Assembly: GCA_039801285.1 (NCBI GenBank)
Contig: JBDRUJ010000003.1
Span: 1 to 32,460, forward strand
Source of the DNA: a candidate division WOR-3 bacterium
GTDB taxonomy: Bacteria > Hydrothermota > Tepidihabitantia > Tepidihabitantales > Tepidihabitantaceae
Reading direction: 5' to 3'
Length of the DNA stretch: 32,460 nucleotides
Part shown: positions 11,473-30,920 of the stretch, in pieces
Layout: each line of letters begins with the position of its first letter
Numbering within the stretch: position 1 is the first letter of the stretch
Position numbers and translations under genes: made by a program
Notes under the pieces: model-generated
Database searches by the model: none
Seen by the model: only the letters and a program-made list of their open reading frames with translations
What the model was told of the DNA's origin: nothing

Positions 11473-11545
11473 GGCCCCATCGTCTAGCGGTTTAGGACAT
11501 CACTCTTTCAAGGTGAAGGCACCGGTTCGACTCCGGTTGGGGCCA
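11473..11545 (+). tRNA. tRNA-Glu: tRNA-Glu (anticodon UUC)
   Basis: Hand-folded cloverleaf. Acceptor GGCCCCA/TGGGGCC, D-arm GTCT-AGCGGTTTA-GGAC, anticodon stem TCACT/GGTGA with loop CTTTCAA, T-arm ACCGG-TTCGACT-CCGGT, discriminator A. No encoded CCA. Confidence 0.9.
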
Positions 11546-11555
11546 GAGATTCTGT

Positions 11556-11628
11556 GCGGGAGTAGCTCAGTTGGTAGAGCATCACCTTGCCAAGGTGGGG
11601 GTCGCGGGTTCAAATCCCGTCTCCCGCT
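11556..11628 (+). tRNA. tRNA-Gly: tRNA-Gly (anticodon GCC)
   Basis: Acceptor GCGGGAG/CTCCCGC, D-arm GCTC-AGTTGGTA-GAGC, anticodon stem TCACC/GGTGG with loop TTGCCAA, T-arm GCGGG-TTCAAAT-CCCGT. No encoded CCA. Confidence 0.9.
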
Positions 11629-11631
11629 TTC

Positions 11632-11703
11632 GGCGGCTTAGCCAAGCAGTAAGGCAGCGGTCTGCAAAACCGCAATGCTCGGGTGCAAATCCCGAAGCCG
11701 CCT
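11632..11703 (+). tRNA. tRNA-Cys: tRNA-Cys (anticodon GCA)
   Basis: Acceptor GGCGGCT/AGCCGCC, anticodon stem GCGGT/ACCGC with loop CTGCAAA, T-arm TCGGG-TGCAAAT-CCCGA, short D-stem as is usual for tRNA-Cys. No encoded CCA. Confidence 0.85.
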
Positions 11704-11709
11704 TTTTCC

Positions 11710-11797
11710 GCCGGGATGGCGGAACAGGCAGACGCAAGGGACTTAAAATCCCTCGGTCCAGTTATGGGCTGTGCCGGTTCGAGTCCGGCTCCCGGCA
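11710..11797 (+). tRNA. tRNA-Leu: tRNA-Leu (anticodon UAA), class II with long variable arm
   Basis: Acceptor GCCGGGA/TCCCGGC, anticodon stem AGGGA/TCCCT with loop CTTAAAA, long variable arm (CGGTCCAGTTATGGGCTGT), T-arm GCCGG-TTCGAGT-CCGGC, discriminator A. Confidence 0.9.
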
Positions 11798-11798
11798 C

Positions 11799-11871
11799 GG
11801 GCCGTTAGCTCAGGAGGCAGAGCACCTGATTTTTAATCCGGTGGCCGCAGGTTCGAGTCCTGCACGGCCCA
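11799..11871 (+). tRNA. tRNA-Lys: tRNA-Lys (anticodon UUU)
   Basis: Acceptor GGGCCGT/ACGGCCC, D-arm GCTC-AGGAGGCA-GAGC, anticodon stem CCTGA/TCCGG with one U.C mismatch at 29:41, loop TTTTTAA, T-arm GCAGG-TTCGAGT-CCTGC. It starts 1 nt after tRNA-Leu ends. Confidence 0.85.
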
Positions 11872-12542
11872 TTTCCAGCTGAGAGCCAAAAGAGTCAACC
11901 CGTTGTCAATGAGTATCGCTTCTTTATCAGCCAAGCCAGCCCAATCCCATCCATCTTTCTAGACCAAAGAACTAACAACAAGCCCTTGGTGTTGTCTCAT
12001 TGCGATGCTTTCTGAGAAGCCGTGGCAATATCAGCCGTGGGCTCGCAATGAGACCCGCCAGAACGGCAAATGGGGGCTAAAATGGATGAGTGGCCAGGGT
12101 CTTTTCCTGCCCTGTGATAGCTACTTTCACCCAGCCGGAAAAATCGGGATAAGCTCTGCAGTGCCAGCAGGTTATCCGAAAACAGGGGGCAGACTACCGA
12201 ACCACTTCGGGGCTTACCACCCTGCTAAGTTGCCTTTCAAAAATCAATCTCAGACTCGTGCCGAGTAGAACTCTAAGACCGGTTTTCAGAATCGGCCGAG
12301 GCTCGTGACCAGCGAGCGTTCTGAGCTGACCGCTTAGAACTGGCGCTGGTCTCTTGCCAGGTGCCGGTCAGAGCCGCCTTTCAAGAGCCGTCTAAAGCCC
12401 GACCCTTGGAAGCAACTTCAGTTCGGTCGTCAGAGCCTGGCTGAGAATCGTGCCCAGTCCTTTCCTCAGAGCGGCCCTTGACTCAGTTCCCAGCCACTAT
12501 GACCGAGGCGGGTGTCCGGTTGCCCCATATATCCAGCAAGTT

Positions 12543-12590
12543 TCCTTGACTTATACAATTTCTTGACATCGGGCACATCGGGGCTAAAAT
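12543..12590 (+). promoter_or_regulatory. rnf operon promoter with 16-nt upstream box
   Basis: Box TCCTTGACTTATACAA (12543-12558), 4 nt, TTGACA (12563-12568), 16-nt spacer ending GGC, TAAAAT (12585-12590). ATG 12604 is 13 nt downstream with no Shine-Dalgarno. Confidence 0.55.
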
Positions 12591-12603: not shown

Positions 12604-13908
12604 ATGCGAAGCTTCCGTGGCGGAGTCCATCCCCGCGAAGGCAAGGAAGCAACCGAGCATAAGCCGATTGAGGTTGCGCCCCTGCCTAGCCGGGTTGTCA
12701 TTCCTTTGTCACAACACACCGGCGCACCATCCAGACCGGTTGTTCAGAAGGGTGTCAGGGTGAAGGCCGGCACGATGATTGGTGAGCCGGTGGGCCGGGT
12801 TTCGGTTCCGACCCATTCCTCTATCTCGGGCACAGTCGCTGATGTTGTTGACCTACCCCATCCATTGACCGGCCGGCCGGTGGCAACGGTCATCATTGAC
12901 TCTGACGGTCAGGATGAACTTGAAGCGACGATTGGCGAACAGGACCATTCCCACTTTACGCCGGAGGAGATTATTGAGGCTGTCCGCCGGGCCGGAGTTG
13001 TGGGCCTGGGTGGTGCCGCATTCCCGACATTTATCAAGCTCAGCCCGCCGAAGGAAAAGCCGATTGATACCCTCATCATCAACGGCTGCGAGTGTGAGCC
13101 CTATCTCACCGCTGACCACCGGCTGATGCTGGAAAAGAGTCACGAGATTGTCGAAGGCATCAGATTTCTGGCGCGGGCACTTGGGGTGAGCCGGGTCATC
13201 ATCGCCATCGAAGACAACAAGCGCGATGCGGTGCAACTCATGACTTCGGTGGCAGCCGGGCCAGACATCGCGGTGCGCGAACTGAGGACCAAATATCCCC
13301 AGGGCGCTGAGAAGCAGCTCATCAAGGTTCTGCTCGGTCGGGAGGTCCCGTCAGGCGGCCTGCCGATGGATGTGGGCTGTGTGGTTCAGAATGTCGGAAC
13401 CGCCGTGGCGGTCAGGGATGCGGTGCGGTTCGCCAAACCCCTATTCGAACGGGTGGTGACGGTCACCGGACCGGCGGTCGCAGAGCCGAAGAACCTGCGC
13501 GTCCGCATCGGGACACTGGTTAGTGAGCTCGTTCAGTTCTGCGGCGGCTATCAGGGACCGGTCGGAAAGCTCATCATGGGCGGGCCGATGATGGGCATCG
13601 CCCTTGCCTCGGACAAAGTTCCGGTTCTCAAGGGCACCTCCGGCATTCTGGCGCTCGGGCCGGAGCCGGAGTCTGATGAGTCGGAGTGCATCCGGTGCGG
13701 TCGCTGTATCGAGGCCTGTCCGATGGGCCTGGCTCCGACCCGGCTGCACTACCATGTCCGGCAGCGCCGGTTTGCCCAGGCCCGGGCCGAGCATCTTCTG
13801 GACTGCATTGAGTGCGGCTGCTGCGCCTATGTCTGTCCGGCACGGATTCGCCTAGTCCACAGCTTCAAGTTCGGTAAGTCGGAGGTTCTTGCCCAGGAGC
13901 GGAAGTGA
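12604..13908 (+). CDS. rnfC: Rnf electron-transport complex subunit C
   Basis: N-terminal FRGGVHPREGKE motif, NADH/FMN-binding-type core (GLGGAAFPT), and two C-terminal 4Fe-4S motifs CIRCGRCIEACP and CIECGCCAYVCP. First gene of the CDGEAB order. Confidence 0.95.
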   Translation: MRSFRGGVHPREGKEATEHKPIEVAPLPSRVVIPLSQHTGAPSRPVVQKGVRVKAGTMIGEPVGRVSVPTHSSISGTVADVVDLPHPLTGRPVATVIIDSDGQDELEATIGEQDHSHFTPEEIIEAVRRAGVVGLGGAAFPTFIKLSPPKEKPIDTLIINGCECEPYLTADHRLMLEKSHEIVEGIRFLARALGVSRVIIAIEDNKRDAVQLMTSVAAGPDIAVRELRTKYPQGAEKQLIKVLLGREVPSGGLPMDVGCVVQNVGTAVAVRDAVRFAKPLFERVVTVTGPAVAEPKNLRVRIGTLVSELVQFCGGYQGPVGKLIMGGPMMGIALASDKVPVLKGTSGILALGPEPESDESECIRCGRCIEACPMGLAPTRLHYHVRQRRFAQARAEHLLDCIECGCCAYVCPARIRLVHSFKFGKSEVLAQERK

Positions 13909-14978
13909 TGGCCCCAAAGACACCGGCCGAGGAATCAACCCAACTTCTGGTAACCGCCTCACCCCATATCCATTCAGCGGTGACCGTCGAGAAACTGATG
14001 TGGGCGGTGGTGATTGCCCTGGCTCCGGCTTTAGCCGGTTCGGTCTATTTCTTCGGCATCAAGGCGCTGAAGATTATCATCCTGAGCACCGCCGCAGCGG
14101 TCGTCTTTGACGGTCTGGGCCAGCGGCTGATGGGTCGCAAGGTCACGGTCTGGGACGGGAGTGCAGCGGTGACCGGGCTTTTGCTTGCCGCCAATCTGCC
14201 ACCGGACGTTCCCTGGTGGCTGCCGGTTATCGGCGCCGCCTTTGCCACGATTGTAGCTAAACAGCTCTTCGGTGGTCTCGGCCACAACTTTATCAACCCG
14301 GCCCTTGCCGGCCGGGCATTTCTCACCGCCTCCTGGCCAACCCTAATGACCACGAGGTGGCTTGCGCCACGGCTCGGCACCGTCTCCGGACTCGGTCCGG
14401 CCGGACTCCGGCTCTGCACCGATGCGGTCACCACCGCCACACCCCTGAATGTCCTGAAAAACGGCGAGCGGCTGCTGGCCCCGGGCTGCGAACCGGCGCA
14501 ACTCTGGCAGGAGCTCCAGTCCTGGCCGGTCATCAAACGGCTCTTTCTCGGGAATGTCGGCGGCTCACTTGGTGAAACCTCGGCACTGCTGCTGCTTCTC
14601 GGCGGCATCCTGCTGATTATCTTGAGGGTGATAGACTGGCGTATTCCCGTCTCCTACCTTGTCACAGTGGCCATCCTGGTGTTGATTCTGCCCGGGCCGA
14701 AGACCGCGCCGCTTCAGTATTTACTTTTTCACCTTTTCTCGGGCGGCCTCATCCTGGGCGCATTCTACATGGCCACCGATTATGTCACATCACCTTTGAC
14801 TCACAAGGGCCGGCTTATCTTCGGGCTGGGCTGCGGGACCCTCACCGTCCTGATTCGGCGCTGGGGCGGTTATCCCGAAGGGGTGTGCTATTCAATCCTG
14901 CTCATGAATGTGGCAACACCGCTGATTGACCGGCTGGTCCGTACACGGCTTTTTGGCAGACGAAAGGAGCCGAGATGA
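13905..14978 (+). CDS. rnfD: Rnf complex subunit D (polytopic membrane, FMN-attachment family)
   Basis: ASPHIH motif near the N-terminus, multiple TM helices, NqrB/RnfD-like MATDYVTSP segment. The start is GTG 13905 (GTGA overlap with the rnfC stop) or ATG 13908. AGGAG lies at 13895-13899. Confidence 0.93.
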   Translation: MMAPKTPAEESTQLLVTASPHIHSAVTVEKLMWAVVIALAPALAGSVYFFGIKALKIIILSTAAAVVFDGLGQRLMGRKVTVWDGSAAVTGLLLAANLPPDVPWWLPVIGAAFATIVAKQLFGGLGHNFINPALAGRAFLTASWPTLMTTRWLAPRLGTVSGLGPAGLRLCTDAVTTATPLNVLKNGERLLAPGCEPAQLWQELQSWPVIKRLFLGNVGGSLGETSALLLLLGGILLIILRVIDWRIPVSYLVTVAILVLILPGPKTAPLQYLLFHLFSGGLILGAFYMATDYVTSPLTHKGRLIFGLGCGTLTVLIRRWGGYPEGVCYSILLMNVATPLIDRLVRTRLFGRRKEPR

Positions 14979-15116
14979 ATAGAGCGCATCCTTTCTGTCA
15001 TTCCCGCGCAGGCGGGAATCTATTCTTGGATTCCCCAGCTTTCGCGGAGGCGGAGCCTGTTGGAGTGGACCCCTGCGAAGGCAGGGGCAGGAATGGACGA
15101 AAGGAGCCGAAGTGAA
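14959..15116. repeat. REP/MITE-like palindromic insertion with flanking 21-bp direct duplication at the rnfD/rnfG junction
   Basis: GACGAAAGGAGCCGAGATGAA (14959-14979) and GACGAAAGGAGCCGAAGTGAA (15096-15116) are 19/21 identical. Two perfect hairpins lie between them: ATTCCCGC-GCAG-GCGGGAAT (15000-15019) and CCCCTGC-GAAG-GCAGGGG (15070-15087). A related TGTCATTMCCGC....GCGGGAAT copy sits at 23953-23979 in reverse orientation. Confidence 0.75.
14975..15115 (+). CDS. element-spanning 46-codon mini-ORF (coding status uncertain)
   Basis: ATG 14975 overlaps the rnfD stop as ATGA. TGA 15113-15115 overlaps the rnfG GTG as GTGA. Translation: MNRAHPFCHSRAGGNLFLDSPAFAEAEPVGVDPCEGRGRNGRKEPK. It is below the 60-aa cutoff of the ORF track. 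Confidence 0.2.
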   Translation: MNRAHPFCHSRAGGNLFLDSPAFAEAEPVGVDPCEGRGRNGRKEPK

Positions 15117-15657
15117 AGAGAGCCGCTGGTGGATGGTTCTGTCGCTGGTTGTCACCTGTCTCATCTCAGCCTGTGCCCTTTCCCAGGTCTATAACCTGAC
15201 CCGGCCGAGGATTGAATATCAGCGGAATGTTGAGGGTCTGCGTCTGGCGTTCAACGCGGTCCTGCCTGAGGCCGACCGGTTTGAGCCGGTCCTTCCGGAC
15301 TCTTCGGTCTGGCACGCCTTTTCCGGAGACCGGCGCATCGGCAGCGTGCTCCGGGTTGCCAAACGGGGCTATGCTGGCCCGGTGCCGGTTACTGCCGGAA
15401 TTGACCTTGAGGGCCGGATTGTCGCCATCCGCATCGCCTCACCGGCCGAAGGACTGAAGGAGACTCCAGGGCTGGGGCTCAAGGCCCTTGAGGAGTCGTT
15501 CCGCAGCCAGTTCCAGGGGAAAAGCGCCCCGGAAATCCGGCTCACCAGGGACGGCGGGACAATCGAGGCAATCACCGGAGCAACCATCACCTCCCGCGCG
15601 GTGACCGATGCCCTCCGGGAAGGAATGGAACGTTATCAGGAGCTGCTCAAGCCATGA
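15112..15657 (+). CDS. rnfG: Rnf complex subunit G (FMN-binding)
   Basis: GTG start after AAAGGAG. N-terminal TM anchor WWMVLSLVVTCLISACAL. FMN-attachment motif ITGATITSRAV. Confidence 0.92.
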   Translation: MKESRWWMVLSLVVTCLISACALSQVYNLTRPRIEYQRNVEGLRLAFNAVLPEADRFEPVLPDSSVWHAFSGDRRIGSVLRVAKRGYAGPVPVTAGIDLEGRIVAIRIASPAEGLKETPGLGLKALEESFRSQFQGKSAPEIRLTRDGGTIEAITGATITSRAVTDALREGMERYQELLKP

Positions 15658-23411: not shown

Positions 23412-23990
23412 ATGCGCATTGTCAGCGGCAGGTTGCGGGGCCGGCGGCTGGTCTATCCCAGGGCCGGGCTGAGGCCGACAAAGGAGATGACCAGGCAGGC
23501 GATATTCAACATTCTGGGCCGAAGGGTGACCGGGGCACGGGTTCTGGACCTTTTTGCCGGTGGCGGCTCTCTGGGAATTGAGGCGTTGTCGCGCGGTGCG
23601 CGGAGCGCCGTTTTTGTTGAGAAGAGTGCCGGTGCGGTCCGGTTTCTGCGGGAGAATGCCCGGGGCCTGGCTGGAGCGCGGGTTGTCAGGGGTGATGTCC
23701 TGCGGGTGCTGAGGCGGCTGAAGGGCGAGCAGTTTGACCTGATTTTAGCCGACCCGCCCTATTGCAACGGTCTGGTCCAGCCGACGATTGACCTGGTGGT
23801 GCAATATGAGATTCTGGCTCCGGACGGGTGGTTTGTTGTAGAGCATCACCGTCAGGAGGAGCCGGTCGGGCCGGCGGGCTGGGAGGTGCTGGGGAAGGGA
23901 AGATTCGGCGAGAGTCTGGTGACGGTGTTCCACCGGTCGCGCACCGATGGCTGCAATTCCCGCGTGTGCGGTAATGACAGAGCAGAATGA
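23412..23990 (+). CDS. rsmD: 16S rRNA (guanine966-N2)-methyltransferase RsmD
   Basis: MRIVSGRLRGRRL...P...LRPT...R.A.FNIL, SAM motif VLDLFAGGGSLGIEALSRGA, catalytic DPPY. The last ~17 codons (TDGCNSRVCGNDRAE) are encoded by a REP-like repeat. Confidence 0.9.
   Translation: MRIVSGRLRGRRLVYPRAGLRPTKEMTRQAIFNILGRRVTGARVLDLFAGGGSLGIEALSRGARSAVFVEKSAGAVRFLRENARGLAGARVVRGDVLRVLRRLKGEQFDLILADPPYCNGLVQPTIDLVVQYEILAPDGWFVVEHHRQEEPVGPAGWEVLGKGRFGESLVTVFHRSRTDGCNSRVCGNDRAE
23953..23979. repeat. REP-like palindromic element copy (reverse orientation)
   Basis: ATTCCCGC-GTGT-GCGGTAAT (23956-23975) followed by GACA. Its reverse complement TGTCATTACCGCACACGCGGGAAT matches TGTCATTCCCGCGCAGGCGGGAAT at 14996-15019. 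GGAATGACA fragments also occur at 2418-2426 and 23295-23304. Confidence 0.65.
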
Positions 23991-24023: not shown

Positions 24024-24515
24024 GTGAAGATTGCGGTTTATCCCGGTTCTTTTGACCCGATTACGCTCGGCCATCTTGATGTCGTGGAGCGGGCGACGCG
24101 GCTGTTTGACGAGGTGGTTGTTGCGGTTGCTGAACGGCAGGAGAAGCACCCCATCTTCTCCTGGCAGGAGCGGATTGAGCTGGTCAAGGCCGCAACCAAA
24201 GGGATGGCGCGCGTCCGGGTAGCGGGGTTTGATACACTGCTTGTTGACTTCGTCCGGAGCCAGGGAGCCAGCGCGGTGATTCGTGGGCTGCGGGCGGTGA
24301 TGGACTTTGATTACGAGTTTCAGATGGCGCTCACCAACCGGAAGCTGGCGCCGGATGTTGAGACGGTGTTCTTTGTTCCCTCGGAGAGGTTCTTCTATCT
24401 CTCCGCTTCGCTGGTCAGGGAGCTGGCCTCAAAGGGTGGTGAGCTGAGATGCTTTGTCCCGGAGGTGGTGGAGCGGGCGCTGCGGCAGAAATGGCCCCTG
24501 GGTGGTCAGCGGTGA
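24024..24515 (+). CDS. coaD: phosphopantetheine adenylyltransferase
   Basis: GTG start after GAGGAGG. Signature KIAVYPGSFDPITLGHLDVVERA. Length ~160 aa and ...ISSSLVRE-like SASLVRELA. Confidence 0.95.
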   Translation: MKIAVYPGSFDPITLGHLDVVERATRLFDEVVVAVAERQEKHPIFSWQERIELVKAATKGMARVRVAGFDTLLVDFVRSQGASAVIRGLRAVMDFDYEFQMALTNRKLAPDVETVFFVPSERFFYLSASLVRELASKGGELRCFVPEVVERALRQKWPLGGQR

Positions 24516-29395: not shown

Positions 29396-29443
29396 AGTTT
29401 AGCCTATCCTGTCCTTTTGTCAAACCTTTGTATAAGTCAAGGA
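29396..29443 (-). promoter_or_regulatory. promoter of the kinase-regulator-nadC operon with the same 16-nt upstream box as rnf
   Basis: On the minus strand: TCCTTGACTTATACAA (29443-29428), 4 nt, TTGACA (29423-29418), 16-nt spacer ending GGC, TAAACT (29401-29396). Confidence 0.5.
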
Positions 29444-29519
29444 CATTTGCGACATCACCTCCGCCTTCCGCGAGGGTAGTATACTAAATCTTGTGTAAAT
29501 TTGAGAAGCAAGCACGAAC

Positions 29520-29548
29520 TTGACAGCAAATGAACTCCAGGGCATTAT
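29520..29548 (+). promoter_or_regulatory. sigma70-type promoter for the PKD/PQQ-like gene
   Basis: TTGACA (29520-29525), 17-nt spacer, CATTAT (29543-29548). The TTG used as ORF-track start is the -35 itself. Confidence 0.4.
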
Positions 29549-29567
29549 TCCTCCACAACCGACCGCT

Positions 29568-30920
29568 ATGTTGCTACTAAGACGAGGTTCTGTCATTAGG
29601 TCAATCCCTGTTTTGATAATAAGCGGTTGTGCAATCGCCGTAGTTACTTGCTGGCGCCCTCGTGTTGTTATTTTACATGAGCGCGAATCCACCGGAAGTG
29701 TTGGCGTTACATGCTCCTTCTTGGCGAAGGCGACCGACCCAAAACGGGAAAGCGTTGCGGTCCGATTCTCTTGGGGAGACGGCGACACTTCCGACTGGAG
29801 CAACTGGGTTGCGAGCGGCGAGACGGTCGCGCAATCCCATTCCTGGAAGAGCCCTGGCTCCTATGATGTGATGTTGCAGGCGAGGGACAAGCAAGGCGCA
29901 ACGTCGGGCTGGTCCGAATGCCATGCGGTTGCCGTGGCCCTTCCGCCCGGCACCCTGAAGTGGCGCTACCGGATTGACGGAACGGTAGGCTCGCCAGCAA
30001 TCGGCCCGGATGGAACAATCTATGTCTGTTCTTTCGTCCTCCGGCCAGAGTGCCGTAAAGAGTTTGAAGAGGAATACGGGAGTGGCGCCGATTTGACGAA
30101 GTACTTTGATAGTTGGGTTCATGCAATCAACCCCGACGGCACTCTTCGCTGGTGTTCCAAAACCGGTCAGGGGTGTAGTAATGGTTCGCCTGAGTTTGGC
30201 CCTGACGGCACAGTTTACGCTAATGGCTATGCCTTCACTTTCACATCAGAAGGACTGTCAAGGACTGCGCAGGACCGAACACCTGCTGCTACGGGAGCTG
30301 AGGGGGTTTTCTACGAACCTCACTACAGTGCAGTTCTGATAGCCTACAATCCAGATGGAAGTGTGAAATGGTCACTTCAGGAGGATGAAGGGATGTGGGC
30401 TGGCAGCAGTATTTTCTTTAGCATACAGGAGGTATCTGGTGAGCCTTTCCTAGGCAGCCCGGCAATAGGTCAGGATGGCACAATCTACTACGGTCACCGT
30501 CAAGGTGGATTTTATGCCATCCGGCCTGATGGAACAATCAAATGGAAGCTTGAGATTGATGCCGGTGTCGTGTCGTCGCCGGTAATTGGCGCAGATGGAA
30601 CGGTATACTTCGGAGGACGGGATGGTTATTTTTATGCTGTCACACCTGACGGCAGAGTGAAGTGGCGTTTTGATGTTGGGGCTAGTGCCGAAGCCGAGGT
30701 GGTTGCCACTCCTGTCATCGCTGCCGATGGCACGATTTATGTGGGCTCCAAGGATAGTTATCTTTATGCGCTTACGCCCGACGGAACGCTCAAATGGCGC
30801 TTCAAGACCGAGGGCGAAATAGTCGCTTCTCCTACTATTGGTCCGGACGGCACACTCTATTTCGGCTCAAAAGATGGCTACCTGTATGCCGTCCAAGACA
30901 CACTGGGAGGTGTAAAATGA
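29568..30920 (+). CDS. membrane-anchored/secreted PKD-domain plus PQQ-like (BamB-type) beta-propeller repeat protein
   Basis: ATG 29568 (MLLLRRGSVIRSIPVLIISGCAIAVVTCW) is preferred over TTG 29520. PKD-like module: RFSWGDGDTSDW...HSWKSPGSYDVMLQARDKQG. Repeated blades: SPAIGPDGTIYV / GADGTVYFGGRDGYFYAVTPDGRVKWRF / DGTIYVGSKDSYLYALTPDGTLKWRF. Confidence 0.85.
   Translation: MLLLRRGSVIRSIPVLIISGCAIAVVTCWRPRVVILHERESTGSVGVTCSFLAKATDPKRESVAVRFSWGDGDTSDWSNWVASGETVAQSHSWKSPGSYDVMLQARDKQGATSGWSECHAVAVALPPGTLKWRYRIDGTVGSPAIGPDGTIYVCSFVLRPECRKEFEEEYGSGADLTKYFDSWVHAINPDGTLRWCSKTGQGCSNGSPEFGPDGTVYANGYAFTFTSEGLSRTAQDRTPAATGAEGVFYEPHYSAVLIAYNPDGSVKWSLQEDEGMWAGSSIFFSIQEVSGEPFLGSPAIGQDGTIYYGHRQGGFYAIRPDGTIKWKLEIDAGVVSSPVIGADGTVYFGGRDGYFYAVTPDGRVKWRFDVGASAEAEVVATPVIAADGTIYVGSKDSYLYALTPDGTLKWRFKTEGEIVASPTIGPDGTLYFGSKDGYLYAVQDTLGGVK

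Follow-up and report, generated by a model that had tools for sequence, protein, structure and literature searches.

In E. coli, repetitive extragenic palindromic (REP) sequences and bacterial interspersed mosaic elements (BIMEs), such as those at malE-malF, form intercistronic hairpins that can stabilise upstream mRNA and modulate the expression of flanking genes, and their GTAG-tagged superfamily is tied to the REP-associated tyrosine transposases (RAYTs). The CGTC-1 REPs are defined by a CGTC tag (or its variants TGTC and CCTC), an 8-bp stem opening with AT and closed by a 4-nt loop, and a short tail (Di Nocera et al., 2013, PMC3733652). They include Neisseria dRS3 and Rickettsia RPE-6, have been reported from five phyla, occur in many copies per genome, for the most part as inverted dimers, often lie no more than 20 bp from the 3′ end of the upstream gene and sometimes extend C-termini; for CGTC-tagged REPs no dedicated transposase or RAYT is known (PMC3733652). 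A neisserial intergenic mosaic element (NIME) is an RS element with dRS3 (ATTCCC-N8-GGGAAT) on both sides (PMC1797815). Here we describe REP-type hairpin DNA lying between rnfD and rnfG in a 32,460-nucleotide stretch of contig JBDRUJ010000003.1, from a candidate division WOR-3 bacterium; the whole of this stretch is referred to below as the window. The insert is flanked by two copies of the gene junction and is spanned by a small open reading frame (ORF).

Reading frames inside operon repeats have been described for mycobacterial interspersed repetitive units (MIRUs), repeats which are mobile, become inserted at start codons and contain an internal ORF coupled at −4 spacing (2025 review, PMC12548453), and MIRUs in a polycistron have been described likewise (Delihas, 2011, PMC3184786). 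As these two papers summarise the work of Supply et al. (1997), the MIRU ORF is interpreted as a device for delivering ribosomes, by which the insertion is rendered harmless. Ribosomes can be delivered by short ORFs, translational coupling decays fast with distance, and its efficiency is negatively correlated with structure just after the upstream stop (PMC12548453).

The window contains an rnfCDGEAB operon, as identified by Pfam (RnfC_N/Complex1_51K, NQR2_RnfD_RnfE, FMN_bind, Rnf-Nqr twice, and FeS/Fer4). Elsewhere in the operon the genes overlap by 4 bp in an NTGA tetranucleotide (GTGA at C/D, ATGA at G/E and E/A) or abut (TGAtATG at rnfA/rnfB). Between the rnfD stop (14976-14978) and the rnfG GTG (15112) there is a gap of 133 nt. 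The gap is bracketed by two 21-mers, GACGAAAGGAGCCGAGATGAA (14959-14979) and GACGAAAGGAGCCGAAGTGAA (15096-15116), which are identical at 19 of 21 positions and lie 137 bp apart; a second copy appeared in none of the shuffled windows. All of this agrees with the initial annotation, and the duplication proves to be longer than it stated: when one indel is allowed it reaches approximately 29 bp (alignment score 37, against a maximum of 33 in 2000 shuffles), the longest identical run between the copies being 15 nt. The left copy holds the last rnfD codons, a Shine-Dalgarno (SD) sequence AAGGAG (14964-14969) and ATGA (14975-14978). The right copy holds a second version of the rnfD C-terminal codons (reading GRKEPK, then stop), the SD sequence AAGGAG (15101-15106), which is 5 nt ahead of the rnfG GTG, and GTGA (15112-15115). 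Since the last rnfD codons, the SD sequence and the NTGA are all within the duplicated segment, both genes keep their native ends: the RnfD C-terminus FGRRKEPR is colinear with the C-termini FGQRREKRQ and FGTGRKK of relatives, and the N-terminus of RnfG likewise aligns (Table 1).

Junctions were compared in seven contigs fetched by exact protein and in 80 loci from GTDB representatives. By its RnfG homologues the contig belongs to candidate division WOR-3, with a nearest relative 80% identical and no same-species sequence in the protein database. In all 14 close relatives (RnfG 64-80% identical) there is a single rnfD/rnfG junction, which is free of the element and has a 4-bp overlap in NTGA. 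It has the form ...GGAG-N6-NTGAAAGA... with no spacer, the tetranucleotide being ATGA in 12 and GTGA in 2, and it is to this junction that the right copy and the rnfG start of the window align. Given that all 14 have one −4 junction and no element, the comparison of sequences confirms the spacer as a derived, lineage-specific insertion accompanied by a duplication of the junction. The initial annotation, which had suggested this alignment as a check, read the arrangement as a target duplication of an ancestral overlap; insertion and junction duplication are borne out, and the transposon-type part of that reading, considered below, is not. It also held that two substitutions in the left copy (AG to GA) had created the ATGA. 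With both ATGA and GTGA found in relatives the direction of change cannot be inferred, and the left ATG may instead be the ancestral rnfG start codon.

Two other loci have split rnfD/rnfG junctions. In the metagenome-assembled genome of candidate division WOR-3 isolate RS_16_8 (locus L183, 9560-9989) the genes are separated by 428 nt that include a gene for a 119-aa member of the 23S rRNA intervening-sequence protein family (PF05635, E=7e-36); this junction has thus received an insertion independently. In a Brevinematales metagenome-assembled genome (locus L162, 1228-1355) they are split by approximately 95 nt of an unrelated inverted-repeat element (CCCCCTTTTCAAAGGGGGCTAGGGGGATTT...AAAATCCCCCCAACCCCCTTTAGAAAGGGG), into whose left arm rnfD runs.

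The insert is approximately 108-116 bp long and consists of one canonical CGTC-1 unit followed by a long degenerate inverted-repeat hairpin. Both perfect hairpins that had been annotated between the junction copies are present, at 15000-15019 and 15070-15087. The first (hairpin 1) has the tag TGTC at 14996-14999, a fully complementary 8-bp stem and a 4-nt loop (ATTCCCGC-GCAG-GCGGGAAT), and a tail CTA (15020-15022) where the consensus is CCA; CTAG and CCAG tails both occur among family copies. Of 294 family ends, 188 have C at position −1 and 81 have T. Hairpin 1 also fits the dRS3 consensus ATTCCC-N8-GGGAAT, and in tag, stem and loop it conforms to the definition of a CGTC-1-type REP of the Neisseria dRS3 / Rickettsia RPE-6 family. 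The second perfect hairpin, CCCCTGC-GAAG-GCAGGGG, is part of the long imperfect hairpin, which is predicted in RNA and in DNA folds and ends in a degenerate inverted REP end (GGAATGGAC); the partner unit as a whole (15070-15098) is degenerate. The insert has an imperfect terminal inverted repeat of 16-19 nt (TCCTTTCTGTCATTCC / GGAATGGACGAAAGGA), which can be written as TCCTTTCTGTCATTCCCGC / GCAGGAATGGACGAAAGGA over 19 nt at 79% identity, and its right arm (GGAATGGACGAAAGGA) and the right direct repeat overlap in the first 10 bp of the latter. The pairing of TCCTTTC with GAAAGGA was considered as a trait of family ends and rejected, CCTTTC being present at none of the 294; three viral matches to CCTTTC had no matching GAAAGG at the opposite end.

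Hairpin 1 behaves in several respects as a typical member of its family. Over 24 nt its sequence is the same as that of copies in Neisseria-like arrays and in many other hosts, it lies 18 nt from the 3′ end of an upstream co-directional gene, and a sister copy in the window (described below) lengthens the C-terminus of an ORF. The module GTCATTCCCGC-N4-GCGGGAAT was found in more than 120 viral contigs, a lower bound, typically as inverted dimers (CGTCATTCCCGCGNAGGCGGGAATCCAG...CTGGATTCCCGCCTNCGCGGGAATGACG). Named replicons carrying it come from several proteobacterial classes and include those of Neisseria, Legionella, sphingomonads, Azospirillum, Cupriavidus, Aeromonas and others, the matches covering only the hairpin part of the query. 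The window differs from the described family in four ways: WOR-3 is outside the five reported phyla; the composite is not a clean dimer, its partner unit being highly degenerate; a 21-29-bp flanking duplication is present, which is normally missing; and the copy number appears low, with two CGTC-1 modules in the 32-kb contig and none in 463 kb of related genomes. In comparison with E. coli REP/BIME sequences, the window insert likewise places stable hairpins between co-transcribed genes, but those sequences occupy ordinary spacers rather than former 4-bp overlaps and have no bridging ORF.

The composite as a whole was seen only here. There is no second copy in the window; blastn found none in 463 kb of WOR-3-lineage DNA or in the 1.24 Mb of rnf loci overall; the three-module pattern had no match in 185,579 GTDB species-representative genomes; and a six-frame translation of the element matched nothing at E <= 1 among 5.8 billion proteins. 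A looser pattern gave 42 matches in JGI metagenome contigs, all of them other hairpin arrays and none with the architecture of the window. Rfam produced only sub-threshold chance matches in the spacer (FtrB; CRISPR-DR28 at E = 2.6). Among known element types, a NIME is ruled out, as there is only one match to ATTCCC-N8-GGGAAT and the second candidate, ATTCCCCAGCTTTCGCGGAG, fails; a REPIN/RAYT system is ruled out, the tag being TGTC rather than GTAG and the window containing no RAYT or IS200-like gene; and an integron attC site, a CRISPR repeat, an integrase att remnant and hairpin resolution of the P-nucleotide type each lack their defining features or neighbour genes.

JGI samples Ga0197142, Ga0272448 and Ga0209809 contain a multi-copy composite of two or three hairpins of the GGATTCCCGC..GCGGGAAC type ending in GCAGGAATGACAC (loci L208, L210, L212, L213, L215-L218, L228, L232, L235, L236, L241, L242, L244, L246 and L247). 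Most copies continue into a conserved tail ...CATTCGGCTAAAGTGTTAC, ending TTAC, and the composite looks like a distinct mobile element.

The 46-codon frame that had been proposed to run from the left ATGA to the right GTGA is present as described, and its product, MNRAHPFCHSRAGGNLFLDSPAFAEAEPVGVDPCEGRGRNGRKEPK, has a C-terminus (GRKEPK) that is a copy of the rnfD tail. Its start and stop follow automatically from the duplication, because the duplicated segment contains NTGA; a single ORF links the two −4 overlaps because the spacing of 137 nt is 2 mod 3 and the frame is free of stops. The chance of such a spanning ORF was recomputed as approximately 0.11 (1/3 for phase, times 0.34 for a stop-free frame, given the frame, a 116-nt insert and dinucleotide shuffles), so the 5-10% estimated in the initial annotation was about right, and the existence of the mini-ORF is weak evidence of selection. 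Two sense frames of the insert are stop-free and the third has one stop, a TAG at its first three bases; over six frames there are three stops, against a shuffle mean of 5.8. We note that freedom from stops can be ruled out as a property of the family, since the superfamily has 7.7 stops per 100 nt against 5.8 in shuffles.

Table 1. Features of the rnfD/rnfG and rsmD/coaD junctions, in window coordinates
Feature	Position	Strand	Description
rnfD	13905-14978	+	Pfam NQR2_RnfD_RnfE, E=1e-118; product ends ...RLFGRRKEPR
Left junction copy	14959-14987	+	Core 21-mer 14959-14979, degenerate extension to 14987
Bridging mini-ORF	14975-15115	+	46 codons; ATG overlaps rnfD TGA, TGA overlaps rnfG GTG
TCCTTTC arm	14989-14995	+	Anti-SD-like; complementary to GAAAGGA of both junction copies, can pair with either
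CGTC-1-type REP unit (hairpin 1)	14996-15022	+	TGTC tag, stem ATTCCCGC/GCGGGAAT, loop GCAG, tail CTA
Long imperfect hairpin	15020-15096	+	5′ arm CTATTCTTGGATTCCCCAGCTTTCGCGGAGG pairs with 3′ arm CCCCTGCGAAGGCAGGGGCAGGAATGG
Right junction copy	15096-15123	+	Aligns to the single junction of relatives
rnfG	15112-15657	+	FMN_bind domain; N-terminus VKESRWWMVLS aligns with MKDSRxWMVLS of relatives
rsmD	23412-23990		3′ end holds the second hairpin
Second CGTC-1-type hairpin	23953-23981	-	TGTCATTaCCGC-acac-GCGGGAAT; orientation opposite to hairpin 1
coaD	24024-24515		

An unbiased scan of the window found a second CGTC-1-type hairpin at rsmD/coaD. It occupies a C-terminal extension of RsmD, 15 residues long and derived: the profile of this protein ends at residue 175, and the window protein is 192 aa long, compared to 177 aa in nearly all relatives. 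In the contigs of four relatives (L253-L256) rsmD and coaD overlap by 4 bp, so that here, too, an ancestral −4 junction has been split by a hairpin of this type. In the window rsmD reads through the hairpin (ending ...FHRSRTDGCNSRVCGNDRAE) and stops 33 nt before coaD; the stop lies within an ATGA whose 22-codon ORF is out of register with the coaD start and ends inside coaD. No clean junction duplication was found at this site, only a weak 13-nt repeat at 77%, and CATGAGGAG, which is shared with relatives and was considered as a trace of one, is explicable by SD conservation. The initial annotation had asked whether copies inside operons are preferentially stop-free and in phase with their neighbours, random phase and stops in other such copies making the mini-ORF a coincidence; the rsmD/coaD copy, the only other one inside an operon, has no exactly spanning ORF, which is in part a refutation. 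The second insert argues against a relay built into the design of the element.

On the other hand, both CGTC-1 modules in the 32 kb split ancestral −4 overlaps, which hints at a preference of these hairpins for coupled junctions. The window has approximately 4 kb of intergenic DNA and six present or former −4 junctions, and the chance of the second hairpin landing on such a junction was estimated at approximately 3%. Part of this two-site pattern is accounted for by the published tendency of CGTC-1 REPs to lie near an upstream 3′ end and to extend C-termini. That CGTC-1 hairpins preferentially enter NTGA junctions, through replication or repair events that copy the junction and so build a relay ORF automatically, is a speculative extension to which we give little credence.

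We propose that REP-type hairpin DNA of approximately 108-116 bp entered an ancestral 4-bp NTGA overlap of rnfD and rnfG, that the event duplicated 21-29 bp of the junction, and that the bridging ORF serves as a ribosome relay; taken as a whole, we consider this account reasonably probable. After the duplication rnfD stops in the left copy, where a copy of the rnfG start overlies its stop, and rnfG starts behind its own SD sequence in the right copy, where its start is overlain by a copy of the rnfD stop. A ribosome ending rnfD would re-initiate at the overlapping AUG, translate across the hairpins, melting them, and terminate on the rnfG GUG, exposing or directly re-using that start. The relay would restore a coupling otherwise broken by a structured 133-nt spacer, as has been proposed for mycobacterial MIRUs, and it would be useful here because coupling falls with distance and with structure after the stop. 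The structure is considerable: the spacer RNA is predicted to fold at -72.5 kcal/mol (z = -3.9 relative to shuffles), and partition-function calculations give the rnfG SD sequence a probability of being unpaired of 0.06-0.12 in all folding contexts, compared to 0.43 in a reconstructed element-free junction.

The likeness to MIRUs lies in position and geometry. Here too the repeat is small and is inside an operon, with a co-directional internal ORF that overlaps the stop and start of its neighbours at −4 (ATGA 14975-14978, GTGA 15112-15115). The sequences are unrelated, MIRUs being tandem units rather than palindromic hairpins, and the MIRU ORF is intrinsic and present at many loci, whereas the start and stop in the window come from duplicated host junction DNA; the exact double overlap, moreover, is found at one window locus only, the second insert being without it. 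A ribosome relay across the insertion is plausible by analogy. Translation of the mini-ORF, and any bearing of it on RnfG output, are inferred; whether the relay is actually used in vivo we regard as about evenly balanced, and selection for it as rather doubtful.

Several points weigh against the proposal. Given the duplication, a spanning ORF is expected by chance in approximately 11% of cases, and the insert at rsmD/coaD does not have one. rnfG retains a good SD sequence at 5-nt spacing and could initiate independently. The folds were calculated at 37 °C, which may not be the growth temperature of the host, and the predictions shift with the flanks included. The composite is known from one copy in all the data searched, and the origin of the TCCTTTC arm is not accounted for by family ends.

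A rival reading is that insertion and duplication are real and the mini-ORF is incidental, rnfG being translated from its own duplicated SD sequence and the element simply tolerated. We regard this neutral outcome as possible, if somewhat unlikely. It is favoured by the chance of approximately 0.11, by the automatic origin of the mini-ORF start and stop from the NTGA duplication, by the second insert with no exact relay, by a superfamily that is not depleted in stops, and by the AAGGAG kept 5 nt upstream of the rnfG GTG. That same AAGGAG, however, is predicted to be mostly paired in every context, and coupling efficiency drops sharply with distance and post-stop structure. Since the Rnf subunits make up a single complex, losing the coupling should be costly; and this particular copy has few stops (one in three sense frames, and three rather than a mean of 5.8 in six).

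The hairpins might alternatively act as RNA, as an mRNA stabiliser, partial terminator or attenuator that sets the RnfCD:RnfGEAB ratio, which would be compatible with the relay. The very stable structure is consistent with this, and REPs that separate co-directional genes are believed to function as RNA elements. Hairpin 1 with its CTATTCTT tail is the top terminator-like site of the operon, although the terminator scan as a whole is weak, barely above background (9 sites against 5.6 expected). On this reading the TCCTTTC arm would be a switch between the two SD copies: mutually exclusive pairings are predicted, the arm pairing with the left junction copy in some contexts and the right copy in others, and when the left copy is unavailable it is predicted to pair with the right GACGAAAGGAGC, closing the whole element. 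Against a regulatory role, the element is missing in all relatives, which points to a recent side-effect rather than a conserved function, and as a single copy it permits no covariation test. We consider such a role unlikely.

How the hairpin DNA arrived is a separate question, and the obvious comparison is with the miniature inverted-repeat transposable elements (MITEs), such as Correia/NEMIS, RUP and Nezha. Like these, the insert is short and non-coding, has terminal inverted repeats and flanking direct repeats, folds into long hairpins, is presumably co-transcribed, and can be seen as empty and filled sites. A classical MITE would require a transposase making a 21-29-bp staggered cut, with the direct repeats as a true target-site duplication, and we hold this to be quite unlikely. 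The usual bacterial target duplications are far shorter than 21-29 bp. The direct repeat of the window is much longer than those of MITEs and shares its first 10 bp with the right inverted-repeat arm, which is unexpected for a target duplication. No multiple copies were found in the window, GTDB, JGI, the WOR-3 rnf loci or the protein database, and no transposase, integrase or RAYT gene in the window. Nor do members of the family have target duplications: among 37 distinct complete family dimers, the flanking repeats of isolated copies are of chance length (4-6 bp), and repeats of 17-21 bp occur only inside tandem arrays. When the scan was widened to 140-nt flanks, which recovered the window case as a control, a long non-family flanking repeat was found at only 1 of 193 other hairpin clusters. 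The "REP/MITE-like" label of the initial annotation thus holds for its first half and probably not for its second, and the duplication is probably not of the transposase type.

The exceptional cluster is on an IMG/VR contig (L063, 7069-7210), where a single CGTC-1 hairpin lies between direct repeats of approximately 55 nt (score 62, shuffle maximum 34) within a low-complexity spacer.

Long duplications that are rare and variable in length suggest errors of replication or repair rather than a fixed staggered cut, and we infer that a replication/repair event with template switching is to be favoured. In one scheme, synthesis would pass through the junction, jump to a hairpin donor elsewhere, and return by annealing at GACGAAAGGA, 21-29 nt upstream of the point of departure. 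The product would then read, in order, junction, TCCTTTC arm, hairpin core and junction again. A donor hairpin was not found.

An assembly artefact, either a chimeric join or a collapsed repeat, is worth considering for a metagenome-assembled contig with no close strain for comparison, but it is very improbable: the longest identical run of 15 nt is below the usual assembly k-mers, both genes are intact, in frame and with native ends, and there is a second independent hairpin insert at another junction. That the mini-ORF codes for a real small protein, such as an accessory peptide of Rnf, can be dismissed as extremely improbable, since although it is intact with an SD sequence and an ATG, it is missing at the junction in all 14 close relatives, which excludes a conserved small gene, has no homologue in any frame among 5.8 billion proteins and no Pfam match, and consists of palindromic repeat DNA flanked by duplicated junction codons.

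Some further features of the window are recorded here. The rnfC/rnfD junction (13895-13908, AGGAGCGGAAGTGA) resembles the right rnfD/rnfG copy (15102-15115, AGGAGCCGAAGTGA) at 13 of 14 positions, which exceeds what an SD sequence and an NTGA alone demand. A 33-nt inverted match, 82% complementary with core CCTTGACTTATACAA, links 12536-12568, upstream of rnfC, with 29418-29450, on the upstream side of the gene at 29520-30920. Of the promoter-like sites of the rnf operon, the best (TTGACA-16-TAAAAT at 12563-12590) overlaps this match, which may represent an operator or promoter motif common to the two. A cluster of five tRNA genes at 11473-11871 (Glu-TTC, Gly-GCC, Cys-GCA, Leu-TAA and Lys-TTT) lies between a gene for a SurA-like peptidyl-prolyl isomerase and the rnf operon, and five tRNAs were the only features found by an Rfam scan of the whole window.

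The locus is a fairly ordinary but instructive case of the tolerance of operons to repeat insertions. The REP superfamily is already known to be widespread, and current understanding is not overturned, because a relay ORF inside an operon repeat is established for MIRUs. What is unusual is the combination on one contig of a junction duplication overlapping the element end, an anti-SD-like arm and two split −4 junctions. Every relative having an empty site, it offers a clean natural example of a repeat insertion that an essential and tightly coupled operon has survived: once the stop/start junction is duplicated, both gene ends are restored and, in one of three phases, a ribosome-relay ORF results. 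It also extends the range of the CGTC-1 superfamily to candidate division WOR-3. No enzyme that mobilises CGTC-tagged REPs is known (PMC3733652), so a filled site whose duplication overlaps the element end is a small concrete clue to their spread, and together with the ~55-nt repeats of the IMG/VR contig and the second split −4 junction it hints that they may spread through errors of replication or repair and not by a cut-and-paste route. If a preference for NTGA junctions proved true, a MIRU-like, junction-preserving lifestyle would have evolved independently in a transposase-less REP family, the window would hold the first footprint of how CGTC REPs spread, and the TCCTTTC arm would be a working switch between two SD copies.

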